Source: Nitrososphaerota archaeon (GTDB taxonomy: Archaea; Thermoproteota; Nitrososphaeria; Nitrososphaerales; Nitrosopumilaceae). From it: DNA of 19,912 nt. A program made the position numbers and the translations under genes. This document shows positions 1,394 through 19,655 of the stretch, in pieces; the stretch's first letter is position 1, and each line of letters starts with the position of its first letter. A model generated the notes under the pieces. That model was not told where the DNA came from. It did not search any database and worked only from the letters and a program-made list of their open reading frames with translations. The DNA is taken from the NCBI GenBank assembly GCA_022573895.1, contig JACZTB010000032.1:1-19912 (forward strand), written 5' to 3'.

Positions 1394-1564
1394 TCAATTA
1401 GATTTTGTTTTTTTCTGGCATAAATCGCATAATGTTTCATATATCATACTGTTTATTGGTTTGAATTCACTACCACAATTTGTACATGTATTAAGCAAGA
1501 TTACTCCTGTCTTGAACCCTATATCTTTTCTAACTCTTGGTTTGCTATTCTGTTCTTTTACCAA
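1394..1564 (-). CDS. small zinc-ribbon protein (about 56 aa, start uncertain, TTG at 1562-1564)
   Basis: Hand translation: ..NTCTNCGSEFKPINSMIYETLCDLCQKKTKSN*, giving two CxxC pairs. It overlaps the upstream gene end by about 20 nt. Below the ORF-track cutoff. Confidence 0.3.
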   Translation of the reverse strand: MVKEQNSKPRVRKDIGFKTGVILLNTCTNCGSEFKPINSMIYETLCDLCQKKTKSN

Positions 1565-1793
1565 AATATTTCTCCATTACCCCTGCAACATCATCTGCAA
1601 ACATGCCATGCTCTCCTTCATTCCATATTGTCCGTAATTCCTCAATCATTTTTTGATTCTTGAGGATTTGTTGCTTTAGACCTTCAAGATTATCTTCAGT
1701 ATGTGCCAATCTGGGAATCATGTAATAGTTATAATTCATTCCAACCAAAACAAAATCATCTTCAGATAGTTTAATTTTAGAAATTTCTGTCAT
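1545..1793 (-). CDS. hypothetical protein (82 aa), no recognisable motif
   Basis: ORF in the track. Its ATG overlaps the stop of the upstream gene (1790-1793), so it is part of a coupled minus-strand operon. Confidence 0.6.
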   Translation of the reverse strand: MTEISKIKLSEDDFVLVGMNYNYYMIPRLAHTEDNLEGLKQQILKNQKMIEELRTIWNEGEHGMFADDVAGVMEKYFGKRTE

Positions 1794-1975
1794 GGCTCAA
1801 TATGTGATACAACCCAGTCCTTTATTGCCATATCTGTTCGGTGTTCCTGACATCGAATATGAGGACATGGAATCAATCTACTGCAATTATCCTCTTCACA
1901 TTTTCTGTAAGTTCCTGGAATGTTAGTACCATTAGGGGATATTCGCAGATTGTCCTTATTTTTTTCTGATAACAT
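1790..1975 (-). CDS. small Cys/His-rich (zinc-binding-like) protein, 61 aa
   Basis: ORF in the track. Contains CEEDNCSRLIPCPHIRCQEH. Tightly packed against its neighbours. Confidence 0.55.
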   Translation of the reverse strand: MLSEKNKDNLRISPNGTNIPGTYRKCEEDNCSRLIPCPHIRCQEHRTDMAIKDWVVSHIEP

Positions 1976-1976
1976 C

Positions 1977-2087
1977 TTACTTGTTTGGAATTATTTTTTT
2001 AAAACATTTACAACCACAATCAAACATTCCAGCTTTTCCCATACATTGATCATGATGATCATTATAGCATTTATTCCAAGTCAGCAT
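1977..2087 (-). CDS. tiny Cys-rich protein, 36 aa
   Basis: Hand translation: MLTWNKCYNDHHDQCMGKAGMFDCGCKCFKKIIPNK*. The start shares one nt with the upstream stop (TAATG), and the stop lies 1 nt before the next ATG. Confidence 0.4.
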   Translation of the reverse strand: MLTWNKCYNDHHDQCMGKAGMFDCGCKCFKKIIPNK

Positions 2088-2191
2088 TAGTTATCCTTCT
2101 TTTTGTGAGTCTTTTCATGAAGGAATAATTTTTGAATATCCCCTTCTGATGCGTCCCAAGTAAAACTGCAATGTTTGCAATGATATGTCAT
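2087..2191 (-). CDS. tiny C2H2-like zinc-finger protein, 34 aa
   Basis: Hand translation: MTYHCKHCSFTWDASEGDIQKLFLHEKTHKKKDN*. The pattern is C-x2-C-x16-H-x3-H. It abuts both neighbours. Confidence 0.45.
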   Translation of the reverse strand: MTYHCKHCSFTWDASEGDIQKLFLHEKTHKKKDN

Positions 2192-2308
2192 TTATTTTTC
2201 TACATCCTCTGGTTTCTTTTTTTCAGATTCTTTGAAAGCATTTACGTCATTAGCGACCTGGGTCTTACAAGAACCAAATTGTAATTTTTTAATTATTTTT
2301 TTAAACAT
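2192..2308 (-). CDS. tiny hypothetical protein, 38 aa
   Basis: Hand translation: MFKKIIKKLQFGSCKTQVANDVNAFKESEKKKPEDVEK*. The stop directly abuts the next ATG (2191). Confidence 0.3.
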   Translation of the reverse strand: MFKKIIKKLQFGSCKTQVANDVNAFKESEKKKPEDVEK

Positions 2309-2322
2309 GTCTTTGACAATGT

Positions 2323-2418
2323 CTAGGTATGGAAAATTTTCTCACAAATGTTACACATAAATTTGTAAGGGCTGATTTGAATCCATTCGATACATCTAAT
2401 ACATTCTTTACTTGTCAT
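2323..2418 (-). CDS. tiny zinc-ribbon protein, 31 aa
   Basis: Hand translation: MTSKECIRCIEWIQISPYKFMCNICEKIFHT*, giving CxxC...CxxC. It is the first gene of the minus-strand run. Confidence 0.4.
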   Translation of the reverse strand: MTSKECIRCIEWIQISPYKFMCNICEKIFHT

Positions 2419-2523
2419 ACTATCTAACCATCATAAACTAATAAAAACATACATCGGTTTCTAGGTAACTTTATCATATTTTGGATGATATTACGATCAA
2501 ATAAAACAACTGGCTTGTTTGAA

Positions 2524-2560
2524 ATAATCATCATTTAACTCAAATCTCTCAGGGAAAAAT
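2524..2560 (+). repeat. repeat B, copy 1 (upstream flank of the minus-strand mini-ORF operon)
   Basis: ATAATCATCATTTAACTCAAAT (2524-2545) is identical to 6096-6117, and the similarity continues (CTCTCAGGGAAAAAT vs ATCTCTGGAAAAAAT). Confidence 0.75.
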
Positions 2561-2600
2561 ATCTTGTAATGAATTATGTCAATGAATCGCGATTATTTTG
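2561..2600 (+). repeat. internal att-like site: ATCTTGTAATGAATTATG plus the same arm motif at the same 15-nt spacing
   Basis: TTGTAATGAATTATG matches the right-end TTGTAATGAATAATG at 14 of 15 positions. TCGCGATTATTTTG (2587-2600) is identical to 1227-1240 with the same spacing from the core. Confidence 0.35.
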
Positions 2601-2669
2601 TAAAGGTTGGAGTCGAAAGCAACCCATAATCGATTGTCTGAGTGTTGGTATTGTGGTAAAAATTAGATT

Positions 2670-3434
2670 CTATGTATAAGGGCAGTATTTTTTATGTTCA
2701 TCAAAAACCGTTCGTATTAACAGAGTCAGATTCTTTTTCAATAACTCTAAATCAGATTTGTGGATTTTTGAAGAGGGTAAATGCGCAATATGATCTTGAT
2801 CGTTACGCATGACATTATAACTTTTAAAGAAACTAATCGATGCAGTTCGAATTGAAAAATTTACTGCCTTTGCCTCTTTAAATAAAATTGATTGCATTTC
2901 AGAAAATTTCTTTTCCCATTTGAGGTGTCTAACAGTACCCTCTAAAATTCCATGATCCATCAAAAATTTAGAACAAACTGTTTCCATAAAATTAAGAATT
3001 ACCAAAGAATCAATCCAATCTTGATTGATGTTACTAATTCCATGAGTTTGCCCGATTTCAATCACTTTATTTGTTATATTGCTCAATTTCATATATTGCG
3101 GAAGAGTGTTGGATTTGTTAGAAGATTTAGAAGATGAACCAGAAGAGGATGCATGACTAGTTATGGAAGAAAATTTCAATTTTTTTAATTCTGGGAGTTT
3201 TTGATAAATTGTAGTATTTCCAATTGTTGTAACTACTGTAAGAAGACCCATGTCTTCAAGATGCCCAAGTTTGTATGAAACATTACTATGTTGTTTTCCA
3301 AGAGTCTGTGCAATTTGAGTGCTATTTTTCTTACCGTTAACTTGTTCAAAAACATTCCAAGCAATTGAATTTTTTTTACCCAATATTGTCCGTGCATTAT
3401 CAAGTGTAGATGACATGTTTGCAAGTTTTGACAT
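2670..3434 (-). CDS. ArsR/MarR-like wHTH, Ser-rich linker, then alpha-helical C-terminal domain with an RNxxxH (HEPN-like) motif
   Basis: 254-aa ORF. The N-terminus reads STQIAQTLGKQHSNVSYKLGHLEDMGLL (wHTH recognition-helix pattern), followed by the linker SHASSSGSSSKSSNKSN. RNDQDH lies at aa 210-215 (nt 2790-2807), about 45 aa from the C-terminus. Confidence 0.75.
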   Translation of the reverse strand: MSKLANMSSTLDNARTILGKKNSIAWNVFEQVNGKKNSTQIAQTLGKQHSNVSYKLGHLEDMGLLTVVTTIGNTTIYQKLPELKKLKFSSITSHASSSGSSSKSSNKSNTLPQYMKLSNITNKVIEIGQTHGISNINQDWIDSLVILNFMETVCSKFLMDHGILEGTVRHLKWEKKFSEMQSILFKEAKAVNFSIRTASISFFKSYNVMRNDQDHIAHLPSSKIHKSDLELLKKNLTLLIRTVFDEHKKYCPYT

Positions 3435-3440
3435 TTATTT

Positions 3441-3764
3441 TTACTCCGGTACCTCATTAACTTCATAAAGTCTCAGAGGTTTAATCTCAATCCCCTTTCC
3501 CAGAGAATCTTCTACTAAAATAATTCCATTTTTCTTCCATTTCAAAATTGTTTGACCTAAACTTTGAGATGCAACCCCAGATTTTTTTGCTATTTCAGTA
3601 AGGGTAAATTTACCATTACACAAATTATATGCCTTAAGAAGTTCTTTTGGTTTCTTGCTATTTTTTTGTATTATTGCAATTAACTTTTCTTCTGGAAATA
3701 CCAATCTCCCCAATAGCGAAATAATGAATTTGTTCTGTTTGATTAATTCTTTAATCTCACTCAT
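3441..3764 (-). CDS. winged-helix DNA-binding protein (107 aa from ATG 3764; the track ORF extends to 3797)
   Basis: Contains FTLTEIAKKSGVASQSLGQTILKWKKNGIILVE. The start MSEIKEL overlaps the stop of the upstream gene by 8 nt. Confidence 0.7.
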   Translation of the reverse strand: MSEIKELIKQNKFIISLLGRLVFPEEKLIAIIQKNSKKPKELLKAYNLCNGKFTLTEIAKKSGVASQSLGQTILKWKKNGIILVEDSLGKGIEIKPLRLYEVNEVPE

Positions 3765-3966
3765 TTTTCTTTCTCCTATATTGTGACAATGTAACATTTA
3801 CGGTATTCTGACTTTTTCCTAAAATATTAGCAACATCCTTGTTAGCAATTCCAAGTTTACTAAGCAATACTATTTGTTCTCCAATTTCTTTACCTTTAAT
3901 TTGATTCATAGCTAGAAGTTTTATTATTACATCTAATTTTTCTATAATTAATTTGGATTCAGTCAT
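3757..3966 (-). CDS. small helix + HTH protein, paralog P1 (69 aa)
   Basis: KLDVIIKLLA ... LSKLGIANKDVANILGKSQNTVNVTLSQYRRK. The pattern is shared with P2-P5. ATGA overlap with P2. Confidence 0.7.
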   Translation of the reverse strand: MTESKLIIEKLDVIIKLLAMNQIKGKEIGEQIVLLSKLGIANKDVANILGKSQNTVNVTLSQYRRKKNE

Positions 3967-4190
3967 TTGTTACTCCTTCGTTTTTGTTTCACAAGTTCAC
4001 TTGACACATAGCCTCTAGACTTACCAAATAAATTAGCAATGACATTATCTGAAAAACCTAATCGATTTAACATGAAAAATTGCTCACCTGTATTCATTTC
4101 AGAGATTTCATTAGATCTAAGTGTCAAATATATTAAAAGTTCAAGATTTTTATTGATTTTTTCCAATACGATGGTATTAATTTCAGGCAT
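3963..4190 (-). CDS. small helix + HTH protein, paralog P2 (75 aa)
   Basis: KNLELLIYLTL ... LNRLGFSDNVIANLFGKSRGYVSSELVKQKRR. First gene of the minus-strand operon. Confidence 0.7.
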   Translation of the reverse strand: MPEINTIVLEKINKNLELLIYLTLRSNEISEMNTGEQFFMLNRLGFSDNVIANLFGKSRGYVSSELVKQKRRSNK

Positions 4191-4347
4191 GATTCTATTA
4201 ATATATAGAAAATTCTTGTATTTATGACTTTTTTTTTTAATATTTTTTATTGTTTTTTATGCCTGTTATTTTAATTATATTAATTAAGGAAGTAAATAAT
4301 ACAATAATCGACATAAAACTTAATTAGTAATATATCAGCAATACATT
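4191..4347. promoter_or_regulatory. divergent promoter/operator region between the two HTH operons
   Basis: 157-bp, very AT-rich spacer between divergent ATGs. Contains TTTTATGCCTGT (4255-4266) and the variant TTTATGACT (4221-4229). Confidence 0.45.
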
Positions 4348-4548
4348 ATGAGTAATGAAGAAAGTAAATCAATTGAAAAATTGTTATCTGAAATTAACAA
4401 AAAGTTAGATATTCTTATAGAAATTCAGATCCTTGACAAATCAGAAGATGATCAATTAAAAATGTTGAAAAGATTAGGATATTCTTCAAAAGATGCCAGT
4501 GAATTTACTGGAATAAGTTATTCTTCAATTAGACATAGAAAAGGGTGA
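4348..4548 (+). CDS. small helix + HTH protein, paralog P3 (66 aa)
   Basis: KKLDILIEIQIL ... LKRLGYSSKDASEFTGISYSSIRHRKG. Confidence 0.7.
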   Translation: MSNEESKSIEKLLSEINKKLDILIEIQILDKSEDDQLKMLKRLGYSSKDASEFTGISYSSIRHRKG

Positions 4549-4790
4549 AAAGATTAGTAAAAAAAACCAATGAAAAATCCAAAACAGAACTAGATCTTCT
4601 TAATGAAATTAGTTTAAAATTAGATAAGGTGATTGGGATTTTGGCATGTTCATCAATTAAAGAACCAAGAAACAAAATTCCGTTATTAAAAAATTTGGGA
4701 TTTACAATTGAAGATACTGCAAACATTACAGAACTAACAATAGATGTAGTGAAAAAAGAACGTTCTAAGTTAAAGGATTCTAAAAAATGA
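4545..4790 (+). CDS. small helix + HTH protein, paralog P4 (81 aa)
   Basis: LKLDKVIGILA ... LKNLGFTIEDTANITELTIDVVKKERSK. ATGA overlaps on both sides. Confidence 0.7.
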   Translation: MKRLVKKTNEKSKTELDLLNEISLKLDKVIGILACSSIKEPRNKIPLLKNLGFTIEDTANITELTIDVVKKERSKLKDSKK

Positions 4791-5005
4791 GTGATGACAT
4801 TTTAAAATCAATTAATCAAAAGTTGGATTCAATTCTAAAGATTTTAGCATTGCAATATATTGAAAACAAACCGAAAACAGAACAAGCAAATATACTATTG
4901 AATTTAGGAATGACCTCAATAGAAGTTGGAAAAATACTTGGAAAATCAGATGTGACAATTAGAAGACAAAAACAACAAGCAAGAAATAAAAAATCTAAAA
5001 ATTAA
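4787..5005 (+). CDS. small helix + HTH protein, paralog P5 (72 aa)
   Basis: QKLDSILKILALQ ... LLNLGMTSIEVGKILGKSDVTIRRQKQQARNK. Confidence 0.7.
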   Translation: MSDDILKSINQKLDSILKILALQYIENKPKTEQANILLNLGMTSIEVGKILGKSDVTIRRQKQQARNKKSKN

Positions 5006-5012
5006 TTTCAAA

Positions 5013-5086
5013 ATTATTTATGCCTAGAAAAATTATTTATGCCTATTCTTTATGCCTAGTATTACGCATAAAGATCTTTATGCGTA
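5013..5086 (+). promoter_or_regulatory. iteron-like cluster: 3 direct TTTATGCCTA repeats plus a 24-bp perfect palindrome of a variant half-site
   Basis: ATTATTTATGCCTA occurs at 5013-5026 and 5032-5045, and TTTATGCCTA at 5049-5058. TACGCATAAAGA|TCTTTATGCGTA at 5063-5086 is a perfect palindrome. Confidence 0.6.
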
Positions 5087-5170
5087 GAGTTGAATCTTAA
5101 TAGATTAGAATCTAAATTACATTTAAGATAATTTACCAAACAGATTACAGATAATCTCTAAAAAGGGACT

Positions 5171-5236
5171 CCCCCCTTTTCACGAACAAAAAGTCATGTT
5201 AATCCACATTATAATGTCAAGTTGATTTGTTTTGAT
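5171..5236 (+). repeat. repeat A, copy 2
   Basis: See copy 1. It again lies in a convergent gap, between the P5 end (5005) and the end of the GYNK-repeat gene (5287). Confidence 0.7.
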
Positions 5237-5286
5237 CTCATCCATTTTATTATCTTTGTATCTTTTTTAGGTCACAATTTTTATGA

Positions 5287-6042
5287 TTAATCATTTTTTA
5301 CTTCGATTTTATTTTTATTAAATTTGTTGTATCCATCTTTGTTGTACCCCTCTTTGTTGTAACCTAGGTGATCATATCCAAGTCTATCATACTCCTCTTT
5401 GTTATACCCAATACTATCATATCCATCTAAGTCATACCCATAACTGTCATATCCATTTCTATCATACCCATTACAATCATATCCATTTCTATCATACCCA
5501 TTTTTGTTATACCCGTCTTTGTTGTACCCATTTTTGTTGTACCCATCTAGGTCATACCCATTTTTGTTGTAACCCTTTTTGTTGTACCCATCTAGGTCAT
5601 ACCCATTTTTGTTGTAACCCTTTTTGTTGTACCCATTTTTGTTGTAACCCTTTTTGTTGTACCCGTCTTTATCAAAATTTATTCTTGTATCAATATGAAT
5701 TCCATCAAGATAAAAACCATGATTATCATACCCATTTTTGTTGTAACCCTTTTTGTTGTACCCATTTTTGTTGTACCCATCTTTGTTGTAACCCTTTTTG
5801 TTATACCCATTTTTGTTGTAACCCTTTTTGTTATACCCATTTTTGTTATACTCCTCTTTATTGTACCCGTCTTCATCATACCCATTTTTGTTGTAACCCT
5901 TTTTGTTGTACCCATCTAAGTCATACCCATTTTTGTTGTAACCCTTTTTGTTGTAACCCTTTTTGTTATACCCATCTTTGTCATACCCATCTTTGTCGTA
6001 TCCAAACTCGTCAAATTTTTTAAATTTATCAAATAACCCCAT
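5287..6042 (-). CDS. orphan G-Y-[ND]-K-x pentapeptide tandem-repeat protein (251 aa)
   Basis: ORF in the track. More than 40 consecutive GYNKK/GYNKN/GYDLD units are split by one non-repeat insert (NHGFYLDGIHIDTRINFDKD). No signal peptide or TM segment. The underlying 15/30-bp DNA periodicity runs from 5310 to 6000. Confidence 0.6.
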   Translation of the reverse strand: MGLFDKFKKFDEFGYDKDGYDKDGYNKKGYNKKGYNKNGYDLDGYNKKGYNKNGYDEDGYNKEEYNKNGYNKKGYNKNGYNKKGYNKDGYNKNGYNKKGYNKNGYDNHGFYLDGIHIDTRINFDKDGYNKKGYNKNGYNKKGYNKNGYDLDGYNKKGYNKNGYDLDGYNKNGYNKDGYNKNGYDRNGYDCNGYDRNGYDSYGYDLDGYDSIGYNKEEYDRLGYDHLGYNKEGYNKDGYNKFNKNKIEVKND

Positions 6043-6095
6043 AAAGATATGAAATTACTAGTGGATTATTACTATTTTGTAAATTTTGGACACAT

Positions 6096-6132
6096 ATAAT
6101 CATCATTTAACTCAAATATCTCTGGAAAAAAT
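6096..6132 (+). repeat. repeat B, copy 2 (upstream flank of the GYNK-repeat gene)
   Basis: 22-bp exact match plus a degenerate extension to 2524-2560. It lies about 55-90 nt upstream of the minus-strand ATG at 6042. Confidence 0.75.
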
Positions 6133-6199
6133 TCGGGGTTTAACAAAGTTGAATTGTTCATTTTCAGTCATTGGTGTTTACTAATTTACCATGTCAAGT

Positions 6200-7393
6200 C
6201 TATAGAATGATTTCAGAATCATCAACATCCTTAACGACTATAAAATCAGAATCATCATCAAATTTTACATGTTTTTCAATGTCAGGGTATTTACTCAGAG
6301 ATGACGAATCTAGTTTAGAATTTTTTCCTTCTTTACGTATTAATTCTGCTAGATCAAATTTCATTCTCATAAACTCGTTTTCTAAATTCCGTAGTTGTTT
6401 GGATTGATTTTCAAGTAAGGGGTTGTTTTTCTCTAATGCTTCTTTTTCAACCAATAGTCTCTCAGAACTATCTACTGTAAGATCTACAATCCCATTTTTG
6501 AACTCTTCAAACATTTGCTCAATTGTGGGTTGGAGATATGTTCCATCTAGTCCTCTCTTATGCCCCATCATTTTCTCAATAATATTGTCATTTACAGCCT
6601 TGTTTAACTTCAAAATAGTGTCAAATCTCTTCCTAAATCCATGTGCCAATTGTTCAGCATATCGACCATTCTTTTTCTGCCCTCTAACATTTGAGTTTTT
6701 TACTGCCCTAATCAAAATACCTTGAATTGCTCTTTTGGAAATTGGTTTGGGTTTTGAAATTCCCAATTGATAACGTTCTCTAAACAAAGGACTTTCATCA
6801 TTTAGAACTTCATGGTTTCTTTTTCTTTGTTCTAAATAATCATCTAATGCTTTGGAAGCTTCGGGTGTAAGAAATGTATAATATTCTTCAATTGAATCCT
6901 CATAAACTGTAATCATCTTACAGTCTAATGGCATATCTCTAATGTGTTTTAATTTCAATTCAGGTAATGAACCAACTCTAACACCAGATGATGCAAGAAA
7001 GTGAATGATTGCTTTGTTTCTAATTTGTGGAGAAACATCTAACATTTTTTTGACATCTTCCGTAGAATATGCAGAAGACCCTGAACGCTTAACAGGAGCA
7101 GGATAAAGTCTTTTGATTTTTCTCCAATTAAGATCAATGTCATTTGCTTCTAAGAAAGTTTTGATTGCATTAGCTTCTGATGGTAATGTGTTTGGACTGA
7201 TTTTCTTTTTGCGATGAATAACATAAGTTTCAACTAGTTTTTGTAGTTCTTTCTTTTCAATTTTTACAATACTATCAAAGTCTTGTATATTATGAAACTT
7301 CATGAACTTCATAACAAGATATGTGTACATCTTTACAGATTCTTGTGAACGTAATGATTCTTGAAATATCATTAGACTGTATTGTTCTACCAC
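6200..7393 (-). CDS. int: tyrosine recombinase / phage-type integrase with a long C-terminal coiled-coil/acidic tail
   Basis: 397 aa. Catalytic-box patterns: ASSGVRVGS (Arg), LAHGFRKRF (H-x-x-R), MGHKRG..GTYLQ (His..Tyr). GTG start at 7393 or ATG 21 nt downstream. Confidence 0.85.
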   Translation of the reverse strand: MVEQYSLMIFQESLRSQESVKMYTYLVMKFMKFHNIQDFDSIVKIEKKELQKLVETYVIHRKKKISPNTLPSEANAIKTFLEANDIDLNWRKIKRLYPAPVKRSGSSAYSTEDVKKMLDVSPQIRNKAIIHFLASSGVRVGSLPELKLKHIRDMPLDCKMITVYEDSIEEYYTFLTPEASKALDDYLEQRKRNHEVLNDESPLFRERYQLGISKPKPISKRAIQGILIRAVKNSNVRGQKKNGRYAEQLAHGFRKRFDTILKLNKAVNDNIIEKMMGHKRGLDGTYLQPTIEQMFEEFKNGIVDLTVDSSERLLVEKEALEKNNPLLENQSKQLRNLENEFMRMKFDLAELIRKEGKNSKLDSSSLSKYPDIEKHVKFDDDSDFIVVKDVDDSEIIL

Positions 7394-7415
7394 AATCTAG
7401 AATATAGTATCTACT

Positions 7416-7448
7416 AAATAATCGCGTTTATGGTCAATTATTGTAATG
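7416..7448 (+). repeat. attR-like site: inverted arm motif AAATAATCGCG followed by core GGTCAATTATTGTAATG
   Basis: 7416-7426 is the reverse complement of CGCGATTATTT. The core at 7432-7448 overlaps the last codons and stop (7438-7440) of the minus-strand TRASH-like gene. Confidence 0.4.
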
Positions 7449-7626
7449 AATAATGAACGTCACAAAAAAGGACTATTCCATGAGGCAAGGTTTTGGCAGT
7501 AATAGTATGACCATCTTCTATTCCTTTACCACAAACATAGCATTCCACTTTAGATACTGAAGATAGGACATTGTGTGATCTTAGAATCTGCATATCCTGA
7601 ATAATTGCTTGATTTACCCCCTGCAT
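7438..7626 (-). CDS. small TRASH/YHS-like zinc-ribbon protein (62 aa)
   Basis: CYVCGKGI-x(18)-FCDVH, resembling the CxxCG....FCSxxC TRASH/YHS pattern with His in the last position. Divergent from trpE. Confidence 0.5.
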   Translation of the reverse strand: MQGVNQAIIQDMQILRSHNVLSSVSKVECYVCGKGIEDGHTITAKTLPHGIVLFCDVHYSLQ

Positions 7627-7743
7627 AGTAATTCTACTACGATCAAATATGATATAAAGGTACCGTACTTTACCGTAATCATTTTATGCCTGTAAACCCA
7701 ATCATTTTAGACTAAAATGGTACGATCATAACCTACTGTTCAA

Positions 7744-7751
7744 TTTAAATA
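7744..7751 (+). promoter_or_regulatory. TATA-like box (TTTAAATA) for the trp operon
   Basis: About 27-34 nt upstream of the trpE start at 7778, consistent with a short-leader or leaderless archaeal transcript. Confidence 0.35.
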
Positions 7752-7777
7752 ATAAACCTCTAGGATTTGGTCTATGG

Positions 7778-9127
7778 GTGAACACATTTGGAAACTCTCA
7801 TGCAAAAGTAATACCCCTAGATTTATCTGAAAACCAATTTCAAATTTATAATAAAATTTCAAGAAACTATTCACATTCATTTCTCTTTGAATCATTAACA
7901 GGTCCTGAAGTACTAGCTGAAACATCAGTTATGGGATTTGACCCAAAGATAATTCTCAAAGGATATTCAGATAAAGTAGAAATTCTTCGAGGTGGAGATA
8001 CAGAAACCATACAAACTATAGACCCATTTGGAGAACTAAAGAAACTCTTAGGAAGATCAGATGATCAAAGTTATAGATATCTTGGTGGAGCAGTAGGGAT
8101 TGTTAACTATGATGCAATTAGATTGGTTGAAGATATTCCAGACAATCATAACTCACCGCAACCATTAATGGAGTTTGGAATTTATGATGATGGTATTCTA
8201 TATGATAATCTACACAAGAAACTATTCTATTTTTATCATGATGAGAATAGATTTGATAAACTAAAGATGAATGGTGATACATTTGGTGACTTCCATTCCA
8301 GCGAAGTAACACCAAATATGGATAAAGAAAAATTCTCAGATATTGTAAACAAGGCAAAAAAATTAATCTATGATGGAGATATCTTCCAAGTTGTTTTATC
8401 TAGGAAATTTGCATTTGAGAATAATGGAGATAATCTAACTTTATACAAAACATTACGAAAATTAAATCCATCACCATACATGTATCATTTAAAACAAGGT
8501 TCCAAAACAATCATTGGTGCATCTCCTGAAATGTTAGTACGTATAACTAATGATAGGGTAGAGACTTTTCCAATTGCTGGAACCAGAAAGATTACAGATA
8601 ATGAAGAAAAGAACAAACAGTTAGCTGATGAACTACTCCATGACGAAAAGGAACTAGCAGAACATACAATGTTGGTTGATTTGGGACGAAACGATATCGG
8701 CAGAGTATGCAAATATGGAACAGTCCATCCAGAATCTCTAATGCAGATAAAGCGATTTAGTCATGTTCAGCATATTGTTACGCACCTAGTAGGTAAATTA
8801 GCGCCTGAAAACGACATGTTTGATGCGTTCAAGGCAGTATTTCCAGCAGGAACAGTCTCAGGGGCTCCCAAAGTTCGGGCTATGGAGATCATTGATGAAT
8901 TAGAGACTGAAGCTAGAGGACCATATGCAGGGGCTGTTGGATATTTCTCATTTAATGGATGCTGTGACTTTGCAATAGCAATCAGAAGTATCTTCATTGA
9001 TGGGAAGAGAGGATTTGTTCAATCAGGAGCTGGAATAGTTGCTGATTCTGTTTCAGAACATGAATTCAAGGAGATAGAATTCAAGGCAGGTGCAATGCTT
9101 CAAGCATTAAAGGAGGCAACTAAATGA
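7778..9127 (+). CDS. trpE: anthranilate synthase component I
   Basis: 449 aa. Motifs LVDLGRNDIGRV, GAPKVRAMEII, GPYAGAVGYFSFNG. GTG start. Confidence 0.95.
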   Translation: MNTFGNSHAKVIPLDLSENQFQIYNKISRNYSHSFLFESLTGPEVLAETSVMGFDPKIILKGYSDKVEILRGGDTETIQTIDPFGELKKLLGRSDDQSYRYLGGAVGIVNYDAIRLVEDIPDNHNSPQPLMEFGIYDDGILYDNLHKKLFYFYHDENRFDKLKMNGDTFGDFHSSEVTPNMDKEKFSDIVNKAKKLIYDGDIFQVVLSRKFAFENNGDNLTLYKTLRKLNPSPYMYHLKQGSKTIIGASPEMLVRITNDRVETFPIAGTRKITDNEEKNKQLADELLHDEKELAEHTMLVDLGRNDIGRVCKYGTVHPESLMQIKRFSHVQHIVTHLVGKLAPENDMFDAFKAVFPAGTVSGAPKVRAMEIIDELETEARGPYAGAVGYFSFNGCCDFAIAIRSIFIDGKRGFVQSGAGIVADSVSEHEFKEIEFKAGAMLQALKEATK

Positions 9128-9714
9128 AATTTCTAATCATTGACAACTATGATTCATTTGTGTATAACATTGCACAATACCTAGGAGAATTAGGAGTTGA
9201 GTCAGATGTTATTAGAAATGATAAAATCACATTAGATGAGATTAAACAGAAAAACTATGATGCCATAATAATTTCACCAGGTCCAGGAACTCCAGAAGAG
9301 AAGAAATACTTTGGAATATGTTCAAATGTGATCAAAGACATGGGACCAACTACACCAATTCTTGGAGTCTGTCTTGGACATCAAGGAATTATTCATGCAT
9401 TTGGCGGTAAAGTTACAAATGCAGGATGTGTAAGACATGGAAAGACTAGTCCAGTTAATCATAATAATTCAGAGCTATTCAAGGGAGTAAGTAATCCATT
9501 TAGAGCAACAAGATATCACAGTCTGGTTGGAGATAAAACAATAATTCCAGATGTACTAGAAGTAACTGCTACTGCAGCTGATGATGGAGAGATAATGGCA
9601 ATAAGACATAAAGAATATCTAATTGAGGGAGTACAATTTCATCCAGAATCAATAATGACTGAAGAAGGCAAAAAAATTCTAGCAAATTTCATAAAACAGG
9701 TAGAAGAAAAATGA
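9124..9714 (+). CDS. trpG: anthranilate synthase component II (glutamine amidotransferase)
   Basis: 196 aa. GVCLGHQ catalytic Cys motif and QFHPES. ATGA overlap with trpE. Confidence 0.95.
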   Translation: MKFLIIDNYDSFVYNIAQYLGELGVESDVIRNDKITLDEIKQKNYDAIIISPGPGTPEEKKYFGICSNVIKDMGPTTPILGVCLGHQGIIHAFGGKVTNAGCVRHGKTSPVNHNNSELFKGVSNPFRATRYHSLVGDKTIIPDVLEVTATAADDGEIMAIRHKEYLIEGVQFHPESIMTEEGKKILANFIKQVEEK

Positions 9715-10751
9715 TTTCAAATTTAATTCAAAAATTAGAAGAGAAGACAGACCTTACCTATGATGAGATGAATAATGTCATGACAGACATTCTCTCAGGA
9801 AATACAAACATCCAACAGAATGCAGATTTTCTATCCAGTCTGGCAGACAAAGGAGAGACAGATGATGAACTACTTGGGATGCTGGATAAAATGCAAGAGC
9901 TATCTCTAAAAATTGAGCCTAAAAACGCTGGAACCATTATTGATATGTGCGGGACTGGAGGTGACAAGCTTCAAACCTTCAATGTCTCAACTACGGCTTC
10001 ATTTGTAGTAGCTGCTGCTGGAGGAGTAGTTGCAAAACATGGAAATCGTTCCACTTCAGGAGTGTCTGGAAGTGCAGATATTTTTGAGTATTTTGGATAT
10101 GATCTAAATCAAGAACCATCAAAAATTGTACAAATTCTAGAAAAGCATAAAATTTGTTTCATGTTTGCACAAAAGTTTCACCCAACAATGAAGCATGTTA
10201 GTCCAGCAAGAAAACAATTAGGAAAAAGGACAGCTTTTAATCTTCTAGGACCATTATCAAATCCTGCTGGAGTAAAAAATCAACTCGTCGGTGTATTCTC
10301 TAATGAATATCTTGACAGATTACCTATAATTCTAAAAAGAAAAGGTGCAGAAAATATTATGACAGTACGTTCTGATGATGGAATGGATGAATTTTCTACA
10401 AGTGCAACTAACCGTGTATGTATTTTGAAAAATGGCAAAGTGTTGATGAATGCGATTGATCCTGAAGTGGTAGGATTACACAAATCATCACTCAAAGACA
10501 TTCAGATTGAAACAAGAGAAGATGCGATAAAGTCATTTGTTAGTGTTCTGAATAATACTGCAAATCAAGCAATGATTGAAACCACAGCATTAAATGCAGC
10601 AGGAGGATTAATTGTTGCAAACATTGCAAATAATTTTGAAGAAGGAGTAGAATTAGCTATGAACACAATCAAAGATGGAAAAGCATTCAAGACTTTGGAA
10701 AACTTTGTTGCAGACACTGGAGACATTTCAAAATTAAAGGAGATTGTGTAA
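9711..10751 (+). CDS. trpD: anthranilate phosphoribosyltransferase
   Basis: 346 aa. Motifs CGTGGDK and KHGNRS. ATGA overlap with trpG. Confidence 0.93.
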   Translation: MISNLIQKLEEKTDLTYDEMNNVMTDILSGNTNIQQNADFLSSLADKGETDDELLGMLDKMQELSLKIEPKNAGTIIDMCGTGGDKLQTFNVSTTASFVVAAAGGVVAKHGNRSTSGVSGSADIFEYFGYDLNQEPSKIVQILEKHKICFMFAQKFHPTMKHVSPARKQLGKRTAFNLLGPLSNPAGVKNQLVGVFSNEYLDRLPIILKRKGAENIMTVRSDDGMDEFSTSATNRVCILKNGKVLMNAIDPEVVGLHKSSLKDIQIETREDAIKSFVSVLNNTANQAMIETTALNAAGGLIVANIANNFEEGVELAMNTIKDGKAFKTLENFVADTGDISKLKEIV

Positions 10752-19436: not shown

Positions 19437-19655
19437 TCACTCAACTGGTTTTTCAACTGGTTTTTCAACTGGTTTTTCAACTGGTTTTTCAACTGGTTTT
19501 TCAACTGGTTTTTCAACTGGTTTTTCAACTGGTTTTTCAACTGGTTCTTCAACTGGTTCAGGGTGTCCTTTTCCACGCAGCGCAAACAAAACTATTGCCA
19601 TTGAGATTGCAACTCCTGCGGCTGCACCAAATGCTGCTATTCCTGCTTCTGCCAT
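19437..19655 (-). CDS. small membrane-anchored protein: N-terminal TM helix plus (PVEK)n tail (72 aa)
   Basis: [30 protein letters not shown] followed by PEPVEE(PVEK)8PVE*. This is the only one of three open frames across the repeat that has a sensible non-repeat N-terminus. Confidence 0.55.
19441..19560. repeat. 12-bp tandem repeat TCAACTGGTTTT, 8 perfect plus 2 variant units
   Basis: Read directly: perfect units from 19441 to 19536, then TCAACTGGTTCT and TCAACTGGTTCA. Confidence 0.95.

Follow-up and report, generated by a model that had tools for sequence, protein, structure and literature searches.

What does an open reading frame (ORF) encode when it consists almost entirely of a single five-residue unit, and is it a gene at all? 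This question is posed by an ORF of 251 amino acids (aa) on contig JACZTB010000032.1 of a Nitrososphaerota archaeon (Nitrosopumilaceae; assembly GCA_022573895.1). It lies within a stretch of 19,912 nt that was analysed at its full length and is called here the window; all gene coordinates follow its numbering. A preliminary description, made from the letters alone, had reported at 5287-6042 of the minus strand a series of G-Y-[DN]-x-x pentads that follows a 13-residue head, is interrupted once and is closed by a Lys-rich tail. The ORF is present exactly as described and its translation agrees, while cutting of the translation into 5-mers returned the same head, near-continuous pentads, single interruption and tail.

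In total, the protein carries 43 pentads of the Gly-Tyr-Asp/Asn type, i.e. 20 in run 1 and 23 in run 2 (Table 1). The final two pentads of run 1 are degenerate (GYDNH and GFYLD), and the interruption GIHIDTRINFDKD, referred to below as the shift unit, moves the pentad register by 3. The commonest residues are N (46), K (45), Y (44), G (43) and D (32). As the grand average of hydropathy (GRAVY) is -1.99 and the top 19-residue Kyte-Doolittle window reaches -0.49, the protein has no signal peptide or transmembrane segment, and the earlier statement to that effect is borne out. The helical hydrophobic moment of the head is 0.47 in the window copy and 0.66-0.73 in the majority form found in orthologues.

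Based on the comparisons described below, we consider this ORF to be a conserved gene whose product belongs to a large repeat family. As to its role, we tentatively suggest that the product may be a soluble repeat rod of fixed length with conserved ends, which acts as a strut or adaptor.

Frame conservation and purifying selection

One scan of species-representative genomes yielded 58 loci (denoted L below), about 34 of them from Nitrosopumilaceae, whose matches span residues 1-251 at 62-88% identity. The gene is present in about 30 Nitrosopumilaceae genomes, and 25 intact orthologues were extracted for alignment. The annotated frame is open from end to end in all 25, and the alternative frames are interrupted in these orthologues (minimum open stretch 10-87 codons). 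Insertions and deletions comprise whole five-residue units (multiples of 15 bp), except for one four-residue unit, GYKD, which most orthologues share at one site; the window copy carries a complete pentad there. The Nei-Gojobori ratio of nonsynonymous to synonymous substitutions (dN/dS) lies between 0.08 and 0.30 against the window copy, with a median of 0.15 over 204 pairs, and many pairs have dS > 1.

The non-repetitive parts are conserved as well. The head occurs in the orthologues as MGLFDKFSKTFDKF / MGLFDKFSKTFDKFGYDLDGYD, the centre as GYDNRGFSxDGIHIDTKIxFDKDGYNKKGY and the end as GYDRLGYDHLGYxKEGYNxEGYNKFNKxKxEV..D; the shift unit within the centre (GFSxDGIHIDTKIxFDKD) is nearly invariant. 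On this comparative evidence we conclude that the ORF is a genuine protein-coding gene, maintained under purifying selection in marine ammonia-oxidising archaea.

The simplest competing view would be that the locus is a non-coding 15-bp minisatellite with an accidentally open frame. It has in its favour the 15-bp tandem array itself, long open stretches in several frames, and the fact that exact look-ups of the window protein and six relatives (L004, L008, L010, L026, L036 and L059) in a collection of 15 billion proteins found none of them. This view is refuted, since the same frame is kept in 25 divergent genomes, indels are whole units, dN/dS is about 0.15, the head, centre and tail are conserved, and the other frames are broken in the orthologues. 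Loss of the frame in related elements, which had been named beforehand as the sign of a satellite, was thus looked for in the 25 orthologues and not seen. The absence of seven exact proteins from so large a collection suggests instead that gene callers or database filters may systematically miss the repeat gene. Truncation of a longer protein by the border of a genomic island was also considered and ruled out, the orthologues sharing the same tail.

The preliminary description had called the protein an orphan. This can no longer be maintained, given its presence in about 30 Nitrosopumilaceae genomes and the occurrence of the repeat type in 3,556 protein clusters (see below). The top matches of the first protein search were distant relatives and not the Nitrosopumilaceae orthologues.

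Constant run lengths and turnover of repeat units

The DNA of the array is less uniform than first supposed. Tandem Repeats Finder (TRF) detected a 15-bp period over 5398-5996, with 40.3 copies and 71% matches; the longest exact repeat inside the gene is 61 nt, and 150 of 727 30-mers recur. The earlier claim of nearly identical DNA units therefore applies to blocks, but not to the array as a whole. Three alternative-frame ORFs, at 5679-5915 (-), 5685-6023 (+) and 5695-5919 (+), are by-products of the repeat array; such spurious ORFs on both strands had been anticipated, and none of them is open throughout the orthologues.

Run 1 measures 99-100 residues in 19 of the 23 orthologues in which it could be counted reliably; the counts for L019 and L029 are an artefact of parsing the start of the run and lie outside the 23. 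Run 2 has 115 residues in 20 of 25 orthologues. Both lengths are kept together in 17 of 25, and 13 of 25 proteins have exactly 251 aa. At the same time, lineage-specific exact internal duplications of up to 112 nt are found, with super-units of 10, 15 or 20 residues. As 17 of the 25 orthologues retain 20 + 23 pentads, 13 of the 25 have the exact total length, and dS is often above 1, the length appears to be selected rather than drifting.

Recent expansion with probable length polymorphism had been predicted for this gene. What stands of this is homogenisation of blocks within lineages and some indels of whole units; the retention of 20 + 23 pentads in 17 of 25 orthologues speaks against the remainder. 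Length polymorphism, judged from the alignment, does exist but is restrained, as only 8 of 25 orthologues deviate, and by 2-5 pentads.

Conservation is uneven along the protein. When G/Y columns are excluded, the frequency of the top residue is 0.83 in the head, 0.83 in the centre and 0.77 in the tail, and 0.71 and 0.64 in the two runs. The last half of run 2 has a net charge of -3 to -16 in 25/25 orthologues, the rest being neutral to basic, and the isoelectric point (pI) of the orthologues ranges from 4.55 to 8.98. Two biochemical roles were considered in this connection: nucleic-acid binding by net charge was rejected because of this pI span, and calcium binding of the DxDxDG or RTX type because the D/G spacing is unsuited and N freely replaces D.

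A large family of pentad-repeat proteins

A word-seeded protein search returned 369 relatives, and an exhaustive phmmer scan over 1.84 billion cluster representatives found 3,556 clusters at E<=1e-3, 1,336 at E<=1e-10 and 255 at E<=1e-30, many of them long multidomain proteins. The bacterial hosts include Clostridia, Lachnospiraceae, Gastranaerophilales, Mollicutes, Proteobacteria, Campylobacterota, Fibrobacter and Endomicrobia; members also occur in archaea, Entamoeba, Dictyostelium and giant-virus bins. Of 267 retrieved relatives, 263 contain runs of at least 3 pentads, as does the window protein. The pentad consensus of these 263 proteins is G (100%), Y/F (98%), D/N (94%), K/R (64%) and D/E/N (59%).

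The shift unit is likewise shared. Its consensus, G-[ILMV]-[HN]-x-x-T-x-T-x-[FY]-[DN]-x-x, to which GIHIDTRINFDKD of the window protein conforms, occurs in two or more copies in 102 family proteins, most commonly with a length of 13 residues, and the pentad runs that separate the copies are exact multiples of 5 residues. It was also seen in P0001, P0002, P0055, P0086 and at many loci. This recurrence in 102 proteins indicates that the interruption in the window protein is a family feature and not an accident. The archaeal head resembles the second half of the shift unit and recurs as MAIFDVFKKFDEYGF in a Clostridium locus (L059).

Proteins consisting of the repeat only are rare (1 of 263). The repeat is fused to domains of defence type (DUF4145/HEPN, Abi_C, DarT, caspase, RNase_T/DEDDh, defence-type reverse transcriptase, GajB-like UvrD, HNH), to other UvrD-like helicases and HIRAN, and to DnaJ, sigma-70, TrbI, VWA, and lipoprotein or Ig-like surface proteins; one member is a giant of 4,570 residues. 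About 31% have an N-terminal hydrophobic segment, so that the module is used both inside and outside the cell. Within this extensive tandem-repeat family, undescribed so far, the window protein is one of the stand-alone members.

Several other family members deserve mention. Marine Thaumarchaeota carry further family proteins, which start with MGIFSRRDK or MGLFSRRDK. A family protein at 10001-10543 of L053 ends in a zinc ribbon, and P0001 (L001-L003) in an unassigned globular domain of ~140 residues. Members from Clostridia and other hosts (L033, L034, L040, L041, L043, L045 and L052) share an unannotated C-terminal domain of ~150 residues (…MTIEEYIxKSKTSIxxLIxFAKK…YLKANGxLICxK…YLRGEID), which has no Pfam or PADLOC match.

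Predicted structure and proposed function

AlphaFold2 (AF2) was run with an alignment of 60 relatives and, separately, with the single sequence. The aligned run gave a mean predicted local distance difference test score (pLDDT) of 81.5, with values of 94-98 for residues 11-100, 84-96 for residues 121-200 and low values in the last 45 residues. DSSP assigned almost no helix to this model and found isolated bridges at Y and D/N positions; triplets of bridges recur 20 residues apart (75/80-81/86 and 95/100-101/106). The single-sequence run reached a pLDDT of 43, which argues that the confidence stems from the alignment and not from a built-in bias towards repeats. Two elements were predicted in both runs, namely a short helix at the head and a beta-hairpin at GFYLD-GIHID (strands 110-112 and 115-117).

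The low single-sequence score, the composition, the strongly negative GRAVY and a sub-threshold match to the Gly/Tyr-rich Pfam family PMG (17.2 bits vs a cut-off of 29) would all fit an intrinsically disordered Gly/Tyr/Asn/Lys protein involved in phase separation, adhesion or stress protection, similar to mussel foot or keratin-associated proteins. We consider this improbable: the five-residue register is strict, individual pentads are conserved by position across species, the run lengths are conserved, the shift unit is a predicted hairpin in both AF2 models and pLDDT rises to 94-98 with the alignment. In addition, an adhesive would need a signal peptide, which the protein does not have.

The proposal of a strut or adaptor is derived from the pattern of conservation, as the ends are conserved and the middle varies in sequence but not in unit number. 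According to this proposal, each pentad would place one aromatic residue in an extended conformation and form an Asx...Gly turn of four residues, and a run of pentads would stack into a regular, elongated, non-helical rod, either a solenoid or a beta-spiral, bearing a Tyr ladder and a charged surface. Two such rods, of 20 and 23 pentads, would be joined by the beta-hairpin of the shift unit. Contacts might then be made by the amphipathic helix of the head, the acidic distal segment and the Lys-rich tail; the ends would bind partners, or a membrane by way of the N-terminal helix, and the number of pentads would set the distance between them. We infer both the rod-like fold and this role from the conservation pattern and the aligned model.

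A number of observations weigh against this proposal. The aligned model reaches a predicted template modelling score (pTM) of no more than 0.51, and the prediction from the single sequence has a disordered appearance. As spurious contacts can arise from repeat alignments, the aligned model may be an artefact. Foldseek returned 0 matches in the PDB and nothing significant in BFVD, while no structural period emerged when Y/F, D/N and charge were autocorrelated over 4,754 pentads. The length is not absolute either, as the eight deviating orthologues mentioned above demonstrate. Clustering of the neighbours of 29 loci identified no partner gene shared across contexts. Finally, the spacing of shift units in the wider family has a mild peak at 4 pentads without quantisation, and the idea of a length ruler is not secure.

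In a bolder version of the proposal, the pentad and shift unit together would form an unrecognised, very widespread repeat that adopts a fold of its own, either a Tyr-ladder solenoid or a beta-spiral, without PDB counterpart. This repeat would serve in Nitrosopumilaceae as a ruler of 20 + 23 pentads, a number that selection would keep constant during turnover of the units, and in bacteria as the spacing or sensing arm of many conflict effectors. We find this version rather doubtful.

Relation to known repeat proteins

The preliminary description could not place the protein in a named family, and in Pfam, PHROG, NCBIfam and PADLOC no family covers the window protein. For the repeat family as a whole, at least 1,300 protein clusters, we likewise found no entry in Pfam, NCBIfam, PADLOC, the PDB or the literature. 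No PADLOC model matches it at E<=1e-3, and the matches of its relatives fall on the fused effector domains. For PF25296 ('Decapeptide repeat region') it scores 11.3 bits (E 0.34) against a gathering cut-off of 45, the best relative being P0093 with 24.8 bits. A single-sequence search of the PDB found nothing below E 0.09 (4yfo, a designed pentapeptide protein). A full-text literature search for the repeat strings found no description of the repeat, the 'decapeptide repeat' matches being RRBP1, CERLI and mussel proteins.

Classical pentapeptide proteins (PF00805/PF13599/PF13576; Rfr fold; Qnr, MfpA) are the most obvious comparison. They too consist of tandem five-residue units with conserved D/N and often G, enter promiscuous domain fusions and display weak profile similarity; if the AF2 model is correct, four pentads per structural period might be a further likeness. 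The five-residue period of the window protein is strict, all 43 pentads being in register apart from the one 13-residue shift. However, the classical proteins have conserved A and L/F where the family described here has G and Y/F, with the remaining positions charged, and the 13-residue shift unit is an additional feature of the latter. The classical consensus of an L/F centre with a small residue at i-2 does not fit the pattern G / Y,F / D,N / K,R / D,E,N. If Y is taken as the centre, i-2 is charged; if G is placed at i-2, the centre is D/N. The Pfam Pentapeptide models matched neither the window protein, at E<=0.1 or E<=10, nor ten homologues. As both the defining consensus and the models fail, we do not file the protein under the classical family, in agreement with the earlier remark that it is not an A(D/N)Lxx pentapeptide protein.

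A divergent classical protein, folded into a right-handed quadrilateral beta-helix and acting as a DNA mimic like Qnr or MfpA, seems to us highly improbable on these grounds. The period of five, the weak matches to 4yfo and to the DotG/IcmE repeats discussed below, and the AF2 bridges every 20 residues, equal to four pentads, could be taken in its support. On the other hand, the two inward-facing positions (small i-2 and L/F centre) are absent, positions 4 and 5 being charged. The family profile matches no Qnr, MfpA or Rfr chain and Foldseek gave no pentapeptide structure, so that neither sequence profile nor fold links the repeat to a solved classical structure; the run lengths are not quantised in fours. 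Moreover, DNA mimics are acidic, and the net charge of the orthologues varies with the pI span given above.

The only PDB match of the family profile is the decapeptide repeat of Legionella DotG/IcmE (AGFSAxELKx; E 1.6e-10, with low posterior probabilities), which shares a G-aromatic pair at a 5/10-residue period. Only this G-F/Y pair aligns, however, and the DotG unit is Ala/Leu-rich, without D/N. The corresponding NCBIfam model NF033900 gives 16.8 bits against a cut-off of 750, with only the repeat region aligned.

Rhs/teneurin YD repeats have the consensus YDxxGRL(I/T). They resemble the present repeat in the Tyr-Asp followed by a Gly-containing turn and in forming long tandem arrays of secreted or conflict proteins, but their unit has ~20 residues and builds beta-hairpins of a large shell, as opposed to a period of 5 here. 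The RHS_repeat model of Pfam matched neither the window protein nor the relatives examined. Gly/Tyr-rich proteins (PMG or high-Gly-Tyr keratin-associated proteins, mussel foot decapeptides, PF25296) share the richness in G, Y, N and K; they are eukaryotic, secreted or structural, and have neither the strict G-Y-[DN] register nor the shift unit.

Genomic setting in the window and in other genomes

The window comes from a Nitrosopumilus-like genome, with trpEGDCBA and a CTP synthase gene downstream. The repeat gene lies 157 bp from a tyrosine recombinase gene (Table 1). A 15-nt att-like core, TTGTAATGAATWATG, occurs at 1204, 2564 and 7441, the first two copies extending to 37 nt (1204-1240 and 2564-2600). 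Exactly from 7440 onwards the sequence is again homologous to L010, in which the core occurs once, upstream of trpE, at an apparently unoccupied site; in this comparison no match was found for the left flank of the element. We read this arrangement, from sequence features, as two tandem integrated elements upstream of trpE. The one at 1204-2563 contains small Cys-rich ORFs and no integrase, and the one at 2564-7440 contains helix-turn-helix (HTH) genes, the repeat gene and the integrase. The hallmarks of a cryptic integrated element are all present: an integrase gene, directly repeated cores at its borders and, in L010, a site that is apparently empty. The gene had been placed earlier in the second cassette of an island, between repeats A and B; both repeats are real (D2 and D3, see below), and the island carries an integrase.

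Table 1. Features of the repeat gene and its surroundings (window numbering)
Feature	Position	Strand	Remarks
Complete coding sequence, 251-aa G-Y-[DN]-x-x repeat protein	5287..6042	-	stop codon 5287-5289; ORF listing
N-terminal head, residues 1-13, MGLFDKFKKFDEF	6004..6042	-	conserved cap, predicted amphipathic helix
Repeat run 1, residues 14-113, 20 pentads, neutral to basic	5704..6003	-	translation cut into 5-mers
13-residue shift unit, residues 114-126, GIHIDTRINFDKD	5665..5703	-	5-mer cutting; nearly invariant in orthologues
Repeat run 2, residues 127-241, 23 pentads, acidic distal half	5320..5664	-	5-mer cutting; charge in orthologues
C-terminal Lys-rich tail, residues 242-251, NKNKIEVKND	5290..5319	-	conserved as GYNKFNKxKxEV..D
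Conserved 73-nt region downstream of stop codon	5214..5286	-	96% (L004) and 95% (L008) identity directly after the stop
Conserved upstream, putative promoter-side region	6043..6143	-	includes D3b 6096-6132, TATA-like GATTATATG
Repeat D2b	5142..5231	.	copy of 1264-1353; G/C hairpin-plus-T-run features
Tyrosine recombinase (integrase)	6200..7393	-	Pfam Phage_integrase E 3.2e-12; PHROG integrase E 1e-14
Right att-like core, TTGTAATGAATAATG	7441..7455	+	copies also at 1204-1218 and 2564-2578

Small elements of this kind are known. Cryptic integrated elements of Thaumarchaeota range from 2.6 kb upwards and occur in tandem arrays, and 15 of 68 integrated mobile genetic elements with defined integration sites (all classes) lie in intergenic regions (PMC6563490). 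The likeness consists in a small, integrase-bearing intergenic element standing in tandem with an integrase-less one; it concerns the context and not the repeat protein, as no Tyr-rich or pentapeptide-repeat cargo is mentioned by Krupovic et al. 2019 (PMC6563490).

Two pairs of repeated segments are shared by the elements: D2 (1264-1353 / 5142-5231; 78% identity over 90 nt) and D3 (2524-2560 / 6096-6132; 92%). They flank different cargo, eight small ORFs in one element and the repeat gene in the other. A 45-nt core of D2 (GGGGG.ATTCTATTTTTACTGATTGTCGATAAACTCGTT) is found again close to the repeat gene in L010, L020 and L026. The upstream region 6043-6143, for which we infer a promoter function, shares 87% identity with the sequence that immediately precedes the L010 orthologue and 86% with its L050 counterpart. 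Together, D2 and D3 may represent the promoter/terminator pair of a putative cargo slot. D3 contains a TATA-like box and the start ATGATGATTAT.

Other features of the window may be listed briefly. The eight small ORFs (1394-2534, minus strand; 31-82 aa) include several that are Cys-rich and zinc-finger-like, and a stretch of 248 nt (2312-2559) is 93% identical to that directly downstream of the repeat gene in L007. Four small, paralogous-looking ORFs at 3963-5005 (one of 75 aa on the minus strand and three, of 66, 81 and 72 aa, on the plus strand) have weak sigma-70 region 4 / HTH matches. Two winged-helix proteins (3441-3797 and 2670-3434) are encoded next to them, of which the larger weakly matches a replication-initiator PHROG. 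Iteron-like direct repeats AAAATTATTTATGCCTA (two exact copies and one near copy) at 5010-5063, between the HTH block and D2b, might function as a binding site or as the element's origin. A second repeat protein, (PVEK)n after an N-terminal hydrophobic segment, is encoded at 19437-19655 of the minus strand; its tandem repeat (19441-19558; 12-bp unit, 9.8 copies, 99% identity) is nearly perfect and looks recent, unlike the G-Y array.

In other genomes the setting is different. Housekeeping genes (such as ilvBN-leuAB, ilvC, EF-2, ribosomal proteins and aspS) surround the repeat gene there, in at least 10 distinct neighbourhoods, and no integrase adjoins it. For the 24 other orthologues, the 25 commonest neighbour Pfam families listed include no integrase, transposase or defence gene, and the island association of the window copy is thus an exception. 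Pieces of flank travel with the gene, namely 73 nt downstream (L004, L008) and ~100 nt upstream (L010, L050), and D2/D3-like pieces lie near it in L007, L020 and L026. Two genomes have a second copy, which is 5'-truncated in one of them. Given the many neighbourhoods, the travelling flank pieces and the second copies, the repeat gene behaves as a relocating accessory gene under purifying selection.

The truncated copy (L027, 9998-10543; from the same genome as L005) retains only three run-1 pentads and has no start codon; the remainder is in frame, with an amplified C-terminal GYNKD unit. Beside the L005 orthologue, at 6990-9720, lie a gene for a 689-aa Hsp70-like protein with a C-terminal HExxH segment and one for a 223-aa protein with a J-domain-like end, and two distant family members are fused to DnaJ.

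These data also bear on the possibility that the protein is a conflict factor of mobile elements, the repeat being a sensor or docking surface and the archaeal protein a decoy, regulator or exclusion factor. The window gene adjoins an integrase inside an element bounded by att-like cores, the gene has at least 10 chromosomal neighbourhoods with second or truncated copies in some genomes, and homologous repeats are fused to the defence-type domains listed above. Nevertheless, the window protein has no PADLOC match, and the 24 other orthologues are surrounded by housekeeping genes. Relatives occur on only 4 viral contigs, none of them from a thaumarchaeal virus; a tblastn search against cultured phage genomes gave no match, possibly owing to the low-complexity filter of BLAST. 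Fusions to DnaJ, sigma-70, TrbI, VWA, lipoproteins and giant surface proteins also occur, which makes the association promiscuous and not specific to defence. We therefore regard a role in conflict as unlikely, although less so than disorder or DNA mimicry, and retain the strut or adaptor as our tentative choice.

Significance of the repeat protein and its family

The gene described here encodes a widespread accessory protein of ecologically dominant ammonia-oxidising archaea. Its archaeal stand-alone form, in which the repeat number is conserved and the sequence homogenised, constitutes a test case for selection on repeat length. A model that is confident only with the alignment and has no structural neighbour makes the protein a good target for structure determination and a candidate for a new fold. 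Finally, defining the family would annotate thousands of proteins, many of which are fused to defence-type effectors.

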